A stretch of DNA of 64,000 nucleotides from Eledone cirrhosa (taxonomy: Eukaryota), in assembly GCA_964016885.1 (NCBI GenBank), contig CAXHJY010000961.1:62001-126000 (forward strand), given 5' to 3'. The notes beneath the pieces are model-generated. The model did no database searches and was not told the origin of the DNA. It was given only the letters and a program-made list of their open reading frames with translations. The translations under genes and the position numbers were made by a program. Below, piece by piece: positions 3,830-61,170 of this stretch (the stretch's first letter is position 1; the number at the start of each line of letters is the position of its first letter).

Positions 3830-4790
3830 TCTCAGTTGTACATGTGTTGAAAGTAAAGCAAGTAAAGCATGGGAAGAATCATTTAAGCCACAACTGTACA
3901 TGTCTACAACTGACTTCATCTAAGATTGCGTTTTGAAACAAATACAATTATATTATGAAAAAGTCATTTTCGTCTGCCAAGATCTGATCTATGATCGTGT
4001 GTTGAAACTAAAACAATTACAGTGAGAAAGAGTCATTTTCATGACCGTTGTACATGTCTGGCAGCTGACTTGATCTGAGACTGCATGTTGAATCTAAAGC
4101 AATTGAAGTGTAGAGGAATCATTTTAGCAACAGTTATACTTGACTGGACAAGTGACTTGCTCTAAGATAATGTGTTGAAACTAATGCAATTACTACATGA
4201 AATATTTATTTTAGCCACAATTCTACTTATCTGGCAAGTGACTAGATCTGAGACTGCGTTGAAATTAAAGCAATTACTACATGGAAGAGTCATTTTAGGT
4301 ATAGTTGTACTTTTCTAGCTAGTAATTTTATCTGAGACTGTGTGTTGAAATTAATGCAATTACATTTCGGAATACTCATTTTAGCTGCAATTGTACATGT
4401 CTGACTAGTGACTTGATCTGAGACTGTGCTGAAATTAATGCAATTACTGCATGGAAGAGTCATTTTAGCCACAGTTGTACATGTCTAGCAGCTCACTTGA
4501 TTTGAGACTGTGTGTTGAAACTAAACCAATTACCTTTTGCAAGAGTCATTTTAGCCACAGCTGTACGTGTCTAAGACCGTGTTGAAATTAAAACAATTAC
4601 TGTGAGGAGTCATTGTAGTCACAGTTCTATATGTCTGACTAGTGACTTGGTCTGAGACTGTGTTGAATTTAAGGCAATTATCATGTGGAAGATTCATTTT
4701 AACCATAGTTGTACTTGTCTAGCAAATGATCTGAGACTGTGTTGAAACTAAAATAATTATAGCCAAGCAGGAGTCGTTTTAACCATACAC
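3830..4790. repeat. Degenerate ~80-bp tandem repeat, ~12 copies
   Basis: Recurring unit cagttgtacatgtct..cagtgacttgatctgagactgtgtgttgaaactaaagcaattac...gagtcattttagcca. Confidence 0.85.
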
Positions 4791-5490: not shown

Positions 5491-6132
5491 AATAATAGTA
5501 GTAGTAGTAGTTTATATATTTATATACATATATATAAATTTGGGTGAAGAAAACAGAAAAATGGATAAAAAACAGGACAGTTTGGTCTCACCAGTCAACC
5601 TCTGGAGGTCCTTGTCATTTCTTACAAATGAATCAGTTCTAGACCAGAATATGTGATTTCTATAATAAAATAGCTCGGGTCACCTCCTGATATACGTCAT
5701 CAGGAATCTCTCTCTCTCCCTTTCTTTATATATATATATAAATATATACAAAAACATGGGCTGTGTGATTACTGATAACGAGTGTTAGAAGGTAAGGGGA
5801 TACAAACAAGAGATGAAAAGTTTCCCTTTGTCAGCTATTTACTACGGGTCATAGATGTCTCAGCGCATATATCATCATCATCATTTTACGTCCGCTTTTC
5901 CCTGCTTGCAAGGGTGGGATGGGAACTGATTCTGGCTTGATTTCTACAGCTGGATGCCCTTCCTAACACCAACCTCATTTACAGCGGGTGCTGGGTGCTT
6001 TTTTGCCGTAGCACCTCCACGACCACTTTGCAGTGGAATGATATGGACTCCAGTCCCTATCATCTCATTTCTACAGCTGAGTAAACTGGAGCAATGTGAA
6101 ATAAAGTGTCTTGCTCAAGGAAACAACACATA

Positions 6133-6625
6133 TATGTGAAGTATCAGATCACAGGATCCTCAGTCAGCAAATGCGAGCACTGAACACTACACATCTAACC
6201 TCATGGATAGAGAGATTGCTAATAGACACGCTGGCCAGAGTAGGGCGAAATCACGTGTGATTTGCATCAAATAATGCAAATAGCACGGGATTTCGCCCTA
6301 CTCTGGCCAGCGTGTCTATTAGCAATCTCTCTATCCATGAGGTTAGATGTGTAGTGTTCAGTGCTCGCATTTGCTGACTGAGGATCCTGTGACCTGATAC
6401 TTCACATACAGGTGGTGAAACGAAGCGAGATTCGTATCAGCAAAATATAGTTATAAGGTTTGTGATTTAAAACTCTAATCCAGAGATTTGATTCTGAATT
6501 GTTTTTTTTCTATTTAATTGCTAACATGTAGAGATTGTTCTCTATACAGTAACGGTAAAATCACTCGTAATAATTCTTTACACACATCTCACTGTGTAAC
6601 ACACTTCTCTTTGTGTAATATATAC
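6133..6625 (+). mobile_element. PLE-like/retrozyme-like element with a 135-bp inverted 5' duplication
   Basis: Near-perfect hairpin 6133-6267 / 6274-6408 with a 6-nt loop, then a unique tail carrying the rest of an HHR and ending in (TA)n. Confidence 0.75.
6370..6444 (+). ncRNA. Complete monomeric type I hammerhead ribozyme; predicted cleavage after 6436 (GUA^)
   Basis: Stem I tttgctga/tcagcaaa (8 bp). Core CTGAGGA (6378-6384) and GAAA (6417-6420). Stem III acgaa-gcgaga-ttcgt, cleavage A6436. Stem II includes cctg/cagg and cc/gg pairs. Confidence 0.8.
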
Positions 6626-6784
6626 TTATATATATATGTATATATATATATATATATATGTATATATGTAGGTATATATATATGTATATATATATATATA
6701 TAGGCATATATATAGGTATATATATATATATAGGCATATATATATAGGTATATATATATATATATAGGTATATATATATAGAGG

Positions 6785-6815
<31 letters not shown>

Positions 6816-6989
6816 ATATATATAGGTATCATCATCATTTTACGTCTGCTATATATATATATATATATATATATAGTAGTGGATTGCAGTGAAGCTAGAT
6901 GAACCCTAAACACACAACCCAGCCCAGGAATGGACCCCGTGGCATTATCAACATATATACTATTAAACAATTAAACTTAGGTAAGATTG

Positions 6990-13939: not shown

Positions 13940-13988
<49 letters not shown>

Positions 13989-14099
13989 AATGAATAAAAA
14001 ACATGTTTTTTATTCATTCTGACAACTGAAGACAGATACATCTGTCTTCAAGAAACCGGTGGTAAATGAAATAATTATCTTATGTTGTTTATTACAGAA

Positions 14100-19743: not shown

Positions 19744-19995
19744 GGCGCATGGCTTAGTGGTTAGAGCAGTGTGCTTGCAATCGAAATGTTGTAAGTTCAA
19801 TTCTCGGACCGGGTGATGTGTTGTTTCCTTGAGCAAGACACTTTATTTCATGATGCTCCAGTTTACTCAGCTGCAGAAATGAGATGATAGGACTGGGGAC
19901 GCTCTCCTTAAATTGCCCAAGCCTCCAACGAGATATACCTCGGAGGAGGCCAGCTAAACCTGCATGAGTGTGAGCTGTAACAACAACAACAAGAA
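19744..19995 (+). mobile_element. tRNA-derived SINE S2
   Basis: ggcgcatggcttagtggttagag (A box), agttcaattc (B box), core gtgttgtttccttgagcaagacactttatttc, (ACA)n tail. Confidence 0.75.
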
Positions 19996-28317: not shown

Positions 28318-31300
28318 CTATAGTCTGATGTAGAGTGAAGGCCCATTCACACGGGCCATTCTCGCCACTTTCACCCATCTTTCATAGAAACGGCTGGGGT
28401 GCAGCACCTCTCTCTCCATCCTGATCCTTCTTCCGAAATGATATCGGAAGAAACGGACCAGTTGTTGGCCAGAGAGAAAGGTGCCCGACCTCAGTCCTTT
28501 CAGACGCGTCCACCATACAACCTCTTTCGCCATGGCTATTACGCACAGAAACACCGCCTCTGCTTCATCTTTGAAGGGGGGAGGCGGCTTGATCATTACA
28601 ATAGACTCGGTGGTCAACCGGATCGGTCCCACCCTTGACAGCAGTTGTTCGACATAGCCCCACAGATCGGCTACGCCCGAGCAGTGTACTAATGCGTGTG
28701 CAACGGTTTCCTCGTCGCACACGCATCTGGGACAGATCTTTTTGGCGGGGTCCCTACCCGGGCGCCCGTGTCTGTAGAGCCTTTCTCGAACGGGTAAAGC
28801 CCCTCGGTAGCACTGCCAGGCCAGGGACTTCTGGAAGTTGTCCATAGGTCCCGGGCTGAATGTCCTACCGAACAGGCTGGCCAGTTCGTCCTCCTCCATG
28901 TCTAGGGCTTCTCCGAGGGCGTCGTCGCACCTGCTGCGTACTAGCCCTCTATAGAATGTTGCGGTGGAGTCTCCACTGATAACCGGATCCGCCTGCCAGA
29001 GGGCGGTGAGCGCCTGGGCACACTCAGTGTGCCAGGCGCCCAGTTTTCTCGGTCTTTGCTTGACCCAGGATTGCAGCTCGGTGAGTGAGACGAGTCTGGG
29101 AAAGGTTCGTCTCACAAACGAGGCCCACACCGGTTGTCCGGTGAGGAATACGTAGAGGTGCCGTAGCCTTAATGCGTGTTTACGCATCATTAGCCACGGC
29201 ATCCCCAGCCCTCCTTTCGAAGGGTGTTGACAGCAGATGGATCTCCTCACCATAGGAGCCCGCCTCTTCCAAAGGAATTGGAAGAGCGCGCGCTCCATCT
29301 TGGTGAGGGTTTCCCTTGGGCAGGGCACTACGGTCAGGCGGTAGTAGATGACGGACGCTATGTAGGTGTTCGCCACCTCCGCCCGGCCTTTCAGGGATAG
29401 TTTGCAACTGGCCCACTTCTGGGTCAGTGCAAACACCCTGTTCGTAACCTCCGCCCAGTTTTTCTCCACCTGGAGGTCCGGTCCGAACCAGACCCCGAGC
29501 AACTTCACCGGGCCCTCCGTCCAGCGTCCGACGACGCTATCGGAGGGCATCGGTCTGCCCCTCCACGTGCCGAGTTGCAAACCGATCGACTTGTCCCGGT
29601 TCAGCTTAGCCCCTGTGAACTTTTCGTACTCCTCCAGTAAGGTGCCGACCGCCTCGATTTCGGAGGCCGTCGACACCATTACTGTCACGTCATCGGCGTA
29701 GGCCGACACCGCTTTCCGCAATCCCGGTTCCAAAGGGATGCCCTGCAACAACTCCAACTTCCGCAGTAGTGGCTCGAGAGTCAACACATACAGAAGGGAG
29801 GAGAGAGGGCACCCTTGTCGGATGGACCGCGCGATTTTGAACGGCTCCGAGAGGTAGCCGTTCACCTTGACCCTAGAGCAGATGCGGCTGCTGTGCATAG
29901 CAGTGATCCAGCCCCTGAAAACGGGTCCGAAGCCTGCCGCCGCTAGCACCGCATCCAGGTAACCATGGTCGACCCTATCGAACGCCTTAGATTGATCCAA
30001 GTTGATCAGAGCCCCACCAAAGCCGGGTTCGTTCCCAACCCTCTCTATGATGTATCGCATGAGGTGGAGGTTGTCATGGATGGACCTGGACGGGATAGCG
30101 CATGTCTGCGCATCTCCCACCAGGTTGCCCACGACAAGCGCCAACCTCTTTGCTAGCACCTTGGCCAAAATCTGTAACTCTGTATTTAGCAGTGTTATGG
30201 GCCTGAAGTTACTTATTTCGTCCCCCTTGTTCTCGTCCTTCCTCACTAGCGTGACTACGCCCTTGGTCACAGTACAGGGAATTCTCCCGTTCTGTTGCCA
30301 GTTGCAGTAGACCGCCTCGAGGAGATCGGGGAACAAGTCCGGCATAGCTAGATATAATTCGTAAGGAAGACCATCGAGACCCGGGGATTTGCGTTTGCCG
30401 CATTGGCTCAGCACGTCCTCTATCTCAGCGGCCGAAATCGGCTCTTCGCAGGACTTCGCCTCCCTGTCCGAGAGGCGCGGCAGGCCGTCGAGGTATGGAC
30501 CGAAGTCCACGTTCCCAACCGGCTCCCCGCCCCTCCCGAACAGTCGGGCAAAGTGCCTTTGAAAGGCCTCACACATCTGCTTAGGCTCAAGAATCGCCCG
30601 TCCATCCAGGTCTCGCAAAGACCGGATGGTGGATTTAGTTCCACTGTTGGCCTCTGTCACGCGGGCCCAGCTAACAGCTTTGGTCCCCTCGTTCCCTAGA
30701 GCACGTATTTTACTTCGGACAACGCAGCCTTCGTGCTTCGCGTCGAAAAACTGGCTCAAAGCCGTTCTCGACGCTAGCACTCTGGCCACGTCGCCGCTTC
30801 TAATTGCCTCTTCTACTCTATCTATTAGCTCCCTTTCCTTCCTATTCCTATCCGCAGCTAGAACCTTACTAAATTCTATCGAGACTACTCTAATCTCTCT
30901 CTTTAGAGATACCCACCACCTGCTGTTGACGATCGCTCCAGTCAACCGTTCCTTAACTAACGTACTAATCCGATTCCTGTAGGCTCTACTTGCCGGCAAG
31001 GACAAGTTGAGCTTCCAGTAACCGGGGCCCTGTCTATGAGTTCTGTCAAGGTTGACCATGCAGGTCACTAATTTGTGGTCTGAATAGCCAACAATGCGCA
31101 TTTTTGGACAACTTAAAAAGTCCTTCTCCTTAATTCTAACTAAGAACCTATCTAGGTACGACCTAGATGATCCGCTACGATTTGCCCAAGTCCAGGTTGG
31201 CGCAGTCGGAAAATCTAGTCGATATCTATCGGCCAGGTCAAATCGACCGATTAACCCTTTGAGGCTATTACACCCCTCTCTATCGGGGCAGGCCCCTACG

Positions 31301-31755
31301 TAGTCCCAGCGTGCATCTAGGATACCATTCCAGTCCCCCACTAATAGCAAGGAGCGGGACGTCCCTAGAAAAGTCTCCAGACGATGGAAGAAGTCCGGCC
31401 GCATTGACCCGAAAGGGCCGTAGGCGGCTACCAACCTAAACGCTCCGCCTTTACCACTGCCAAGGTCCAGAACCACTAGTCGACCCTCCGGGTCCAAATG
31501 TACCATCTGTGTTGCGAGACCCAGATGTTTTTGCAGCAGAACGACAACTCCACCCCCACCTCCGGGCTGACAGAGAGATGCGTGCATCTCAAAGTCATCA
31601 AAGGTGGGGGCCAGCTGTCGCACGTTGCTAATCCGGGCCTCGCAAATAACCATCACATCTATACGTTGTGACCTGAGGTCATTTAGAAGCATTGCTTGCT
31701 TCCAAGTTGAGCCCAGGCCACGCGCGTTTAAACAGCCTACTCTTAGCATAGCCAT
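28318..31755 (-). CDS. ORF2p: apurinic-like endonuclease + reverse transcriptase + C-terminal CCHC zinc finger (Tx1-like)
   Basis: APE motifs LNARGL, ICEAR, AYGP, GDWN, YLDRF, SDH; GPGYWKLN; RT motifs KSPGLDGLP, FRPITLLN, LDQSKAFDRVDH, RQGCPLS, YADD; CPRC..EETVAHALVHC. The ORF track starts at GTG 31779; the first ATG is at 31755. Confidence 0.95.
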   Translation of the reverse strand: MAMLRVGCLNARGLGSTWKQAMLLNDLRSQRIDVMVICEARISNVRQLAPTFDDFEMHASLCQPGGGGGVVVLLQKHLGLATQMVHLDPEGRLVVLDLGSGKGGAFRLVAAYGPFGSMRPDFFHRLETFLGTSRSLLLVGDWNGILDARWDYVGACPDREGCNSLKGLIGRFDLADRYRLDFPTAPTWTWANRSGSSRSYLDRFLVRIKEKDFLSCPKMRIVGYSDHKLVTCMVNLDRTHRQGPGYWKLNLSLPASRAYRNRISTLVKERLTGAIVNSRWWVSLKREIRVVSIEFSKVLAADRNRKERELIDRVEEAIRSGDVARVLASRTALSQFFDAKHEGCVVRSKIRALGNEGTKAVSWARVTEANSGTKSTIRSLRDLDGRAILEPKQMCEAFQRHFARLFGRGGEPVGNVDFGPYLDGLPRLSDREAKSCEEPISAAEIEDVLSQCGKRKSPGLDGLPYELYLAMPDLFPDLLEAVYCNWQQNGRIPCTVTKGVVTLVRKDENKGDEISNFRPITLLNTELQILAKVLAKRLALVVGNLVGDAQTCAIPSRSIHDNLHLMRYIIERVGNEPGFGGALINLDQSKAFDRVDHGYLDAVLAAAGFGPVFRGWITAMHSSRICSRVKVNGYLSEPFKIARSIRQGCPLSSLLYVLTLEPLLRKLELLQGIPLEPGLRKAVSAYADDVTVMVSTASEIEAVGTLLEEYEKFTGAKLNRDKSIGLQLGTWRGRPMPSDSVVGRWTEGPVKLLGVWFGPDLQVEKNWAEVTNRVFALTQKWASCKLSLKGRAEVANTYIASVIYYRLTVVPCPRETLTKMERALFQFLWKRRAPMVRRSICCQHPSKGGLGMPWLMMRKHALRLRHLYVFLTGQPVWASFVRRTFPRLVSLTELQSWVKQRPRKLGAWHTECAQALTALWQADPVISGDSTATFYRGLVRSRCDDALGEALDMEEDELASLFGRTFSPGPMDNFQKSLAWQCYRGALPVRERLYRHGRPGRDPAKKICPRCVCDEETVAHALVHCSGVADLWGYVEQLLSRVGPIRLTTESIVMIKPPPPFKDEAEAVFLCVIAMAKEVVWWTRLKGLRSGTFLSGQQLVRFFRYHFGRRIRMEREVLHPSRFYERWVKVARMARVNGPSLYIRL

Positions 31756-31779
31756 GTTGGTGGTGAAGAGAAAAGGCAC

Positions 31780-33558
31780 TTACCTCTCTGCGTCCCGGGT
31801 ATCGGGCTGCACAATTTCCATTAGGGTGGGGGATGGGTTGTTGGGTGGGGTGGTGGTTTGTGGAAGTGTGGGGGCATCAGTGTGTTGTGTGGTTGGGGAG
31901 CTTGGAGTTGTGTGGGTGTTTGGGGAGGGGGTGGGATAGTTTTTTAGGAGGACGCGGTTAATGGGCCCGACGCAGGGGGGACCCACGTCCTCTTTAAAAT
32001 TGTTTTTTAAAGTTTTATAGGTGTCCTGTGGGGCCTTAATCATTTTGAGGTGGGGGAAATCCCCTGCCTGGGTGAAGTTAGGCCCTTGTGTTTTTATTAG
32101 ATTGTTGTTGTACACAATGTTTAACAGTTTTTTGTTTCTTGTATTTATGTATGTGTATGCATGTTTTTGTTTTTGTGTGGTGTTTTTTGTTTGCTGTTGT
32201 GAGCTCTTTTGTGTTGGTGTCAGTGTTATGTTTTGGGGAGGGTTTTTTTTCATTTGTGTGTCTGAGGTGTGTTTTCTTTTTTTTCTTTTGATTGTGTGGA
32301 AGTGCTCCTCCTCGTCTGACGACGAACTAGGGTCATCTTCCGCGTTGGAGGGGAGGGGTATATTTTCGGGTTGTGTTTGCGGTACGGGTGTTTTGGAAAT
32401 TGTTTTTGTTTTTTGAGTGGAGGGGATGGGTTGGACATTGTTTTGTTTTGGTTTGAGCTGTGGTGGTTGTTTTTGTAGTGGTAGTTGTGGTGATTGTGTT
32501 GGTTGTGCAGCTGTTGGTGGTGTAGGCAGGATTGGGGTTTTCTTATTAAGTTGGGGACAGACAGCCCTCAGGTGACCTCTGGTTCCGCAGAGGTAACACG
32601 AGGGCCGTCTACCCTCAACGGTAATGTTGATGAAGGTTAGATCATCCAGTATGACGCGTTCAGGGATCTGGGCGATCCTTTCGGGCCTCATTTGAACTAC
32701 AAGTTCGAGGCTCGTTCCACTGAACGCGTCACCCGATGCCTTTCCCATGGACACCAGCATGTCATCCTCCAGGTCCAGAAAACCTGTCAAAACCCACCAT
32801 ATGTCCATAATCGGCAGGATGGTGTGGATTTTTATTTTTTGTGTTCTTCTACCCATGTACGTAGGGTAGAAGGTGTATGCGGTGGATGTGATTGGTTTGA
32901 TGGACAGTTTCACTGCTGTGTCCCTGTCCTTCATGAGAATGGATAGACTCCCGTAGAGTCTATCCTTCTGAATGAAGGTGATGTCCTTCATGACGTCTTT
33001 TAAAACCAGCTCTATCTCGCTCTGTGATGGTTGAGCTGGTTTTTTACTTTTGTTCGAGATTGTCCTAAACATGACCGTGTTTAGGAGTCTCTGGCTTTTT
33101 AGTTCCGGGGGGGAATGGATTGTGAATGAACCATTTTCCCCGTACACTATATATTTTTTCGCATCCGCCAGTAGCTCCTTCGCTTTTGTTATATCTACTG
33201 GCAGATAGTCGAGGGTTTTCCTTGTCGTCTCGGCGAAGGAGAAATTTTGTTTGTTTGTGTTGTTGTTGTCGTTGGTGGTGTTGTTGTTATCATTGTTGTT
33301 GTTGTCACCGTTATTGGTCTTGTTGTTGTTATTGTTATTGGTGTTGTTTTCGTCCGTCGCATTGTTGTTGTTGCTGTTGCCGCTGGTTCTTTGAGTTGTT
33401 ACCATGGCAACGTCAAGTTGTCGGTTAACAGGTGGAGAGAATTCTTCCTCTGGCTGACCTTTCTTCTTGACCTCTGCTACTGTGACAGTGGCAGGGGGAA
33501 GCTGTAAGTTCATCTTCCCCTTTCCTCCTTCGAATTTTGGTGAAGAAGCTTCGGCCAT
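31780..33558 (-). CDS. ORF1p (gag-like nucleic-acid-binding protein) of the Tx1 element
   Basis: 592 aa; zinc knuckle CYLCGTRGHLRAVC (CX2CX4HX4C), basic KRKKRK patch, Asn-rich and Pro/Thr-rich low-complexity tracts; lies immediately upstream of ORF2. Confidence 0.88.
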   Translation of the reverse strand: MAEASSPKFEGGKGKMNLQLPPATVTVAEVKKKGQPEEEFSPPVNRQLDVAMVTTQRTSGNSNNNNATDENNTNNNNNNKTNNGDNNNNDNNNTTNDNNNTNKQNFSFAETTRKTLDYLPVDITKAKELLADAKKYIVYGENGSFTIHSPPELKSQRLLNTVMFRTISNKSKKPAQPSQSEIELVLKDVMKDITFIQKDRLYGSLSILMKDRDTAVKLSIKPITSTAYTFYPTYMGRRTQKIKIHTILPIMDIWWVLTGFLDLEDDMLVSMGKASGDAFSGTSLELVVQMRPERIAQIPERVILDDLTFINITVEGRRPSCYLCGTRGHLRAVCPQLNKKTPILPTPPTAAQPTQSPQLPLQKQPPQLKPKQNNVQPIPSTQKTKTISKTPVPQTQPENIPLPSNAEDDPSSSSDEEEHFHTIKRKKRKHTSDTQMKKNPPQNITLTPTQKSSQQQTKNTTQKQKHAYTYINTRNKKLLNIVYNNNLIKTQGPNFTQAGDFPHLKMIKAPQDTYKTLKNNFKEDVGPPCVGPINRVLLKNYPTPSPNTHTTPSSPTTQHTDAPTLPQTTTPPNNPSPTLMEIVQPDTRDAER

Positions 33559-43378: not shown

Positions 43379-43623
43379 CGTGGGAAAGTGAAAAATCGGA
43401 GAATAGACCGTTAAAACATGTTTATTGAAAATATCACCTACGTACGTTTCGCCCAGTTGTATGTGTGTGTGTATATATATATATAGATATATATATATAG
43501 ATATATATATATACATATATATATCTCTATTAATATATATGTTTATATATATTCATACAAATAAGGGCGAATGCAGGAAAATGAACGAATACAGAGAGTA
43601 GTCCCATCTCAACAGTAGACCGA

Positions 43624-43759
43624 AGGAAAAAGTATGACCCCCGACGGCATGAGCTCTGCCGTCGGGGTCATACTTTTTCCTATTTCCCACTCTACTACCC
43701 TAAGTGTTGAGTACTCTGGTGCGTTATGGTCCGTCTGGTTCCTTACCACAATTCCTTTG

Positions 43760-43762
<3 letters not shown>
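43624..43762 (+). mobile_element. Family C fold-back element, short-arm copy
   Basis: aggaaaaagtatgacccccgacggca-tgagctc-tgccgtcggggtcatactttttcct, then the same tail and (TA)n. Confidence 0.75.
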
Positions 43763-43817
<55 letters not shown>

Positions 43818-45400: not shown

Positions 45401-46029
<629 letters not shown>

Positions 46030-46036
<7 letters not shown>

Positions 46037-46387
46037 GTGAGGTTTTTTTTACAAAATGAAAAATAACCGAGGTATCCTACACGAGTGAAAGTATAAAGAA
46101 AAAAAGATGAAATCGAAAATGCAACTGGAGTCTTATTTAAAAAAAAATATATATTTATTTGGTTCCTTTACCGGTTTCGCAGTTCTTCTTCTTTTCAAAA
46201 GTAGAGTTGAGATGGAGTGTCTGTAGTTTTTCTCACAGAGATGTGAGAAAAACTACAGACCCGCCATCTCAACTCTACTTTTGAAAAGAAGAAGAACTGC
46301 GAAACCGGTAAAGGAACCAAATAAATATATATTTTTTTTAAAATAAGACTCCAGTTGCATTTTCGATTTCATCTTTTTTTCTTTATA
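46030..46387 (-). mobile_element. Fold-back element: ~146-bp arms (46092-46237 / 46242-46387) plus a 60-bp tail, between (TA)n tracts
   Basis: 4-nt loop gaga; arms carry GAAAC-cg-GTA (HHR 3' half) then AATAAA. Confidence 0.8.
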
Positions 46388-50344: not shown

Positions 50345-50548
50345 GGGGTTATATATATGTTTATCTCGGCTTCAGTCGGGGGTAACCACAATAAGTAAGG
50401 TACTCAATACATAGCAGAGTATAAATATTTAATATAGAAAGGCTTCTACAGGACTAGAACTGTTTCATTCGGTAGAAATCATCAGGTTTCCTGATGATTT
50501 CTACCGAGTGAAGCAGTTCTAGTCCTGTAGAGGCCTTTCTATATTAAA
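50345..50548 (-). mobile_element. Fold-back element whose arms are back-to-back hammerhead cores
   Basis: Arms 50428-50486 / 50490-50548. Minus arm: CTGATGA-tttc-tacc-gaat-GAAAC-agttcta-GTC^-ctgtag. Tail carries 'tattgagtac'. Confidence 0.7.
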
Positions 50549-58661: not shown

Positions 58662-58727
<66 letters not shown>

Positions 58728-58731
<4 letters not shown>

Positions 58732-58918
58732 AAAAAATATGACCTCGATGGCAGAGCTCAAGCCGTTTCGACGGCTATTTCTGGACTGAAATAGCCGTCG
58801 TAACGTCTTGAGCTCTGCCGTCGGGGTGATACTTTTTCCTATTTCCCACTCTACTACCCCAAGTATTGAGTACTCTGGTGCGTTATGGTCCATCTGGTTC
58901 CTTACCACAACTCCTTTG

Positions 58919-61001: not shown

Positions 61002-61170
61002 CAGAGTGTGTTGTAGTTTGCTTGAAGCATTGTTGCATAGGAAAGACGAATATAAATAATTTTTTAAAACCATACAATGCACTAGAAAATTAAAATTGCT
61101 AAGGTAATATTCTATTGTTATCTTAGCAATTTTAATTTTTTAGTGCATTGTATCGTTTTCAAAATTATTT
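61001..61170 (-). mobile_element. Fold-back element: ~57-bp AT-rich arms plus a ~53-bp tail, in (TA)n
   Basis: Arms 61054-61110 / 61114-61170. Confidence 0.6.

Follow-up and report, generated by a model that had tools for sequence, protein, structure and literature searches.

A hammerhead-bearing, 5′-truncated repeat end with an inverted copy at its head in Eledone cirrhosa, a likely Penelope-like insertion

We analysed a locus in a 64,000-nucleotide stretch of Eledone cirrhosa DNA (the window) at which a repeat fragment stands head to head with a partial inverted copy of itself. The sense copy (6274–6620, + strand) is a 5′-truncated, 3′-terminal fragment of a multicopy repeat, likely the pseudo-LTR of a Penelope-like element (PLE), an identity that we infer. 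It contains a type I hammerhead motif (6370–6444, +) made up of stem I, the core, an irregular domain II (6385–6416) and stem III, with a predicted cut at 6436/6437; some 180 nt separate the motif from the element's 3′ terminus. Upstream lie a 6-nt apex loop (6268–6273), which forms the head-to-head junction, and the antisense arm (6131–6267, −), an inverted partial copy of 6274–6410 that ends within domain II; its extent is set by pairing and by the allele at 6409, and it is ~210 nt shorter than the sense copy. Two small AC-rich hairpins are predicted by folding at the 3′ end of the element (6578–6615, +), followed by a (TA)n-rich right flank (6620–6876) with a 23-bp SINE-tail fragment at 6828–6850. 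The sole frame of at least 55 amino acids that overlaps the element has no Pfam match. By eye, 6455–6549 (+) could be a small intron, with a GT donor at 6458, a branch-point-like sequence near 6520, a pyrimidine tract and a CAG at 6547–6549; introns can occur in PLE terminal repeats.

On its left the element is joined to a very high-copy composite repeat (5870–6131, −) that is SINE-like and presumably a SINE with a tRNA-like head. Its stretch 6050–6131 matches 19816–19896 at 94%, and its head is missing at 6131; the head of the longer copy at 19816–19896 was not found near this locus. In data from a related organism, other copies of the SINE continue past 6131 with different letters. The junction itself (6124–6131) has one shared base (6131), and the end of the SINE agrees at 6 of 8 bases with the sequence into which the arm would be expected to continue; no target-site duplication was seen there. 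Insertion of the SINE into the arm was ruled out, as no remainder of the arm lies beyond the SINE.

The initial annotation described an upstream arm (6133–6267) complementary to 6274–6408, and the pairing bears this out, with 131 of 135 positions forming Watson–Crick pairs around the 6-nt loop. Its statement of what the arm covers is likewise accurate: the 5′ strand of stem I, the CUGAGGA box and most of stem II, which we count as 24 of the 32 nt of domain II. The differences between the arms (6148/6393, 6253/6288, the G·U at 6258/6283, and 6259/6282) are all plain mismatches, with no compensatory pairs. The arm probably extends two bases further, to 6131/6410, since related copies have a T at 6409 that would pair with 6132. 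Contigs and reads of the related organism place the family letter in the left arm at 6132/6409 and in the right arm at 6259/6282. Because different arms keep the family letter at these two places, an assembly or read fold-back artefact is ruled out, and the palindrome must be older than both mutations. Among the variants listed, both arms differ from related copies at the mirrored positions 6234/6307, 6216/6325, 6217/6324 and 6188/6353, and this coincidence argues that they derive from one template.

The hammerhead motif is real by descent. Stem I comprises 8 bp (6370–6377 with 6437–6444), the core boxes CUGAGGA (6378–6384) and GAAA (6417–6420) are intact, and stem III comprises 5 bp (6420–6424 with 6431–6435, counting A15.1–U16.1) closed by a hexaloop (6425–6430), so that helices I and III close the junction. 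All residues of a type I core are in place, namely C3-U4-G5-A6-N7-G8-A9, G12-A13-A14, A15.1–U16.1 and an NUH site, here GUA (6434–6436). A descriptor requiring this core with at least 8 Watson–Crick pairs in stem I and at least 5 in stem III, thresholds chosen after the motif was known, matched once in the window and not at all in 300 dinucleotide shuffles of the window. The core residues, both stems, the hexaloop and the GUA site had all been reported correctly in the initial annotation. Its description of the hammerhead as complete stands for the core and stems I and III; it does not stand for helix II, which that annotation had left undescribed and which is off register and without the G10.1–C11.1 pair.

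The irregularity lies in the 32 nt that separate A9 from G12. The lowest-energy helix II pairs 6386–6391 with 6407–6412 and leaves 6413–6416 unpaired ahead of G12, and the descriptor scan found zero pairs abutting G12. An in-register helix II would begin with a U·U at 10.1/11.1 and two C–G pairs, followed after a bulge of 4 nt by an inner stem of 5 bp (6392–6396 with 6409–6413); in the bare 75-nt motif this fold costs 5.0 kcal/mol relative to the ensemble. The four bulged bases (6388–6391) are complementary to 6403–6406 in loop II; a pseudoknot between the two is conceivable, though the linkers seem too short. The missing G10.1–C11.1 pair is highly conserved in PLE hammerheads (PMC4209133). 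We found no literature data on substitutions at 10.1/11.1, and our estimate of the cost of this change draws on general knowledge and on an axolotl retrozyme hammerhead with a U·U at the base of helix II, of which 22% was cleaved in 1 h (PMC7229834). Since that motif still cleaves, a U·U here should lower activity but need not abolish it. The ribozyme is thus predicted to cut poorly even in the absence of the antisense arm, weakly at best, and its self-cleavage is doubtful on modelling grounds. No hammerhead family in Rfam reached the gathering score anywhere in the window, and none appeared among the 26 Rfam matches with E up to 10 in 5800–6700. Rfam microRNA matches at the apex scored below gathering and were set aside as generic hairpin likeness.

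The initial annotation further proposed that the hairpin blocks the ribozyme in read-through RNA, and that RNA initiated close to the apex would self-cleave. We modelled both with ViennaRNA, as secondary-structure predictions without tertiary contacts or a positive-control ribozyme. For RNA read through from 6133, stem I had a probability of 0.0 and opening the three-way junction cost 54–57 kcal/mol; the modelling thus supports the first half of the proposal, with stem I and the core buried. The second half found no support in this model. The 6274–6500 RNA also misfolds there (stem I probability 0.002, with the in-register active fold 8.6 kcal/mol above the ensemble), because the 3′ strand of stem I pairs with 6413–6418 and the 5′ half with upstream element sequence. 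Across 17 start points with 3′ ends at 6450 or 6500, stem I probability exceeded 0.4 only for starts at 6170, 6172, 6180, 6360, 6366 and 6370. The accompanying suggestion of a Dicer substrate is not new, as Penelope inverted repeats are already known to yield siRNAs in transformed Drosophila (PMC3681739); the parallel suggestion of an ADAR substrate depends on a cephalopod-like host, to which the repeat types may point. There, long inverted repeats from rearranged copies give double-stranded RNA; the repeat described here is known from its sequence alone.

Contigs and reads of the related organism were placed along 5850–6660, from four of seven listed runs and at most three samples, one run (X4) falling almost only on the SINE. 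The element is a multicopy repeat in that genome. Summed contig depth in run X1 rose from 737 at 6409 to 1,920 at 6425, 5,439 at 6443 and 9,008 at 6461; most of the single contigs listed in this comparison had depths of about 6–13, and depth is not a copy number. Depth is thus ~twelvefold greater on the 3′ side of the ribozyme, a gradient that fits 5′ truncation of family copies. Together with the (TA)n flank at our locus, the copies in the related organism describe a family of many dispersed, 5′-truncated members whose targets are AT-rich or (TA)n. In run X5, read depth summed over both arms was 38–40 in three mirrored bin pairs and 26 in a fourth, roughly level with the 43–65 of the adjoining unique part. 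These counts, from RAD reads of few loci, are a weak fit with most family copies carrying the arm segment once.

Within the 75-nt ribozyme, only 1 of the 29 distinct variable positions listed among related copies was found, against 6.3 expected (P about 0.008), in a set of variants biased by an 80% identity cut-off. That the listed positions avoid the ribozyme argues against a motif that has simply decayed; the pattern suggests, as a lead, that the ribozyme was kept intact in the source family, where the odd domain II may be normal and under selection. No indel restoring the register of helix II occurred among 12 of the 15 indel variants. A pattern search for further family members returned six metagenome, four prokaryote-genome and no viral candidates, and BLAST and context showed all ten loci to be unrelated. 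In the available portions of literature that treats octopus, Penelope and hammerheads together, including PMC6962438, the family is undescribed.

The window holds further palindromes outside microsatellites, at 2450–2567, 13988–14019, 45681–46000, 46092–46387, 50428–50548, 58727–58842 and 61061–61164. Four of the ten palindromic regions examined contain a hammerhead-like core, and in two (46092–46387 and 50428–50548) cores lie in both arms, on opposite strands; an antisense ribozyme copy is therefore not special to the 6133 locus. The first of these is a near-perfect 296-bp palindrome with a (TA)n end and minimal hammerhead-like motifs at 46198 (−) and 46281 (+), whose core is a U3–A8 variant of a kind described for PLEs (PMC4209133). 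The second spans 121 bp, with its apex right at the hammerhead-like core (arms at 50485, −, and 50491, +), and is followed by a fragment resembling a short family with a built-in palindromic head. Three copies of that family (2450–2641, ~43600–43780 and 58727–58910) lie in or next to (TA)n, and pattern search found no hammerhead core in them. At 13988–14075, a small element between (TA)n tracts carries a 32-bp perfect palindrome that spans the 5′ strand of stem I of a hammerhead-like motif, in which helix II is long and G8 is replaced by A. The palindrome at 45681–46000 is diverged (320 bp, 84%) with a (TA)n end, and pattern search found no core in it.

Further hammerhead-like cores lie at 2309 (+), 18582 (−), 40480 (−), 549 (+), 43884 (+) and 63047 (−), and three of these six share an arrangement typical of minimal PLE motifs, in which there is an extra base and helix II has 4 bp. 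Elsewhere in the window we observed a diverged tandem array with units of ~80–86 bp (3850–4790) and an apparently intact two-ORF LINE (28318–33558, −) unrelated to the element at 6133. Its ORF1 (592 amino acids) has no Pfam match, its ORF2 frame (1,153 amino acids) has endonuclease, RT and zf-RVT domains, and an exact look-up of its proteins in a protein collection gave no match.

Published PLE insertions offer the closest parallel. PLEs often carry an inverted, 5′-truncated copy directly at their 5′ end and favour microsatellites, including (TA)n (Craig et al. 2021, PMC8557442), and their head-to-head palindromic junctions have been read as self-priming, with a 5′ microhomology joint and no target-site duplication (Arkhipova et al. 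2013, PMC3846280). Like the endonuclease-bearing PLEs (Penelope/Poseidon, Neptune, Nematis and Naiad), our locus combines a head-to-head partial copy, a short apex, 5′ truncation, a (TA)n flank, a hammerhead in the repeat and a 5′ microhomology joint without duplication. Unlike them, it has no ORF in reach, and its arm falls ~210 nt short where the typical one-sided tail is 30–40 nt (PMC8557442, PMC3846280).

The ribozyme shares with the minimal hammerheads of metazoan PLEs a type I architecture, intact core boxes, a long domain II, a U after A9 and an opposite-strand copy nearby, and differs from them in its 5-bp helix III, non-palindromic hexaloop, 8-bp helix I and lack of G10.1–C11.1, with a helix II that is off register or based on U·U (PMC4209133). 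Its large helix III resembles those of fungal and protist PLE hammerheads described in the same work, which also reports dual hammerheads on opposite strands 100–700 bp apart (Cervera and de la Peña 2014, PMC4209133). The Anolis Poseidon element PAc likewise ends in an AC-rich stem-loop, with a hammerhead ~100–200 nt before it (Frangieh et al. 2024, PMC11167929). The hairpins at 6578–6615 may be compared, by analogy only, with the stem-loop at which the Anolis PLE starts reverse transcription. Cutting by the PAc ribozyme requires protein, and in vitro insertion does not depend on that ribozyme; if the one described here were unable to fold or cut unaided in its native state, it would match that protein-assisted behaviour. 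PAc has a start codon at helix II, which our element lacks.

From these comparisons we consider it likely that the locus is the dead, 5′-truncated end of a Penelope-like retroelement, in which the inverted arm is an insertion by-product and not an evolved switch. The shared inverted 5′ copy, (TA)n bias and microhomology joint without duplication support this reading, as does the recurrence of hammerhead-like cores in both arms of two other palindromes in the window; the head-to-head inverted, 5′-truncated copy and the hammerhead within a terminal repeat (6370–6444) are both features expected of a PLE. The reading is weakened by the lack of a linked reverse transcriptase or GIY-YIG ORF and of a target-site duplication, by the arm that is 210 nt short, and by a hammerhead that has neither the G10.1–C11.1 pair nor the tiny, palindromic helix III seen in those of metazoan PLEs. 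No PLE reverse transcriptase or GIY-YIG ORF was found by Pfam in 102 of 130 candidate frames, the other 28 lying within the LINE at 28–33 kb.

An origin as a solo copy of a non-LTR retrozyme (a tandem, circRNA-forming, hammerhead-bearing element) inserted with the same inverted head is unlikely, although several features lean that way. The hammerhead is of type I and its helix III would allow folding as a monomer, the ~350-nt fragment is within the size range of mussel retrozyme units, an axolotl retrozyme hammerhead (HHR_Amex2) with the same U·U base to helix II still cleaves (PMC7229834), and solo copies of retrozymes are common (bioRxiv 10.64898/2026.07.22.740005). Against it, the locus is a single unit with no tandem array in the window, and depth is uneven along the fragment, with the strong 3′ bias noted above, where a tandem unit should show even depth. 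One element could carry both labels, and retrozymes have been argued to descend from PLEs (bioRxiv 10.64898/2026.07.22.740005).

Less probable still is a palindrome that forms a fixed part of a non-autonomous family and spreads with it. The short palindromic family at 2450, ~43600 and 58727 appears to spread in just this way, but at our locus the left arm ends at the SINE break with microhomology, and the summed depth of the two arms falls short of twice that of the adjoining unique part, a weak argument. We give the least credence, hardly any, to an evolved cis-antisense switch in which long transcripts silence the ribozyme and apex-initiated ones cleave. The modelled blocking in long RNA is complete, but any such inversion would block; moreover, equivalent arrangements occur at two other places within 64 kb, the short RNA misfolds in the model as well, the arms differ by plain mismatches with no compensatory pair, and no promoter or gene context was identified. 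The initial annotation had added in an aside that the inversion may be a by-product of insertion, and this is the best explanation.

Under the Penelope-like reading, the arm was probably made in one insertion event, and the predicted blocking of the ribozyme would be a side effect. Reverse transcription would have started at the 3′ end of the element near 6620, primed at a nick in TA-rich target DNA, and stopped early near 6274, having passed the ribozyme by about 100 nt. The nascent strand would then have folded back at the apex (6268–6273) and copied itself for ~137 nt before its free end joined the SINE through short, imperfect microhomology. These steps would yield precisely the arrangement seen. 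The arm stops at the SINE break, ~210 nt short, so its original end may have been lost; a longer arm later deleted along with the head of the SINE would fit equally well. Each arm would afterwards have gathered a few independent mutations, the hammerhead being inherited cargo of the pseudo-LTR. For the priming itself, Arkhipova et al. favour a self-priming route in which the template is antisense (PMC3846280); the data here fit that route and fold-back of the new strand equally.

As it stands, the locus is one more head-to-head Penelope-type insertion remnant, one of several in a 64-kb window, and matters little. It would be striking to find a ribozyme under an evolved antisense switch, but nothing at the 6133 locus points there. 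Such interest as remains lies at the level of the family, whose hammerhead variant has an unusual helix II alongside a strong helix III. A source family with a working, conserved variant, in which a 5-bp helix III of monomer type accompanies a domain II of 32 nt with two states and activation comes from an element protein or tertiary contacts, is possible, at odds that we regard as low. Its two-state domain II, with a U·U base and a 4-nt bulge complementary to loop II, would be unmatched among the published hammerheads compared, and similar variants may already be present in the supplementary alignments of PMC4209133 or in Lunse et al. (cited in PMC6765202). If the variant were active, cleavage at 6436/6437 would help to explain the excess of copies 3′ of the ribozyme. 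An irregular domain II that proved both conserved and active would widen the hammerhead descriptor used in genome searches, in which Rfam misses this motif. It would also provide a monomer-type animal PLE ribozyme with which to probe the role of these ribozymes in the transposition cycle, a question that is still open (PMC11167929).
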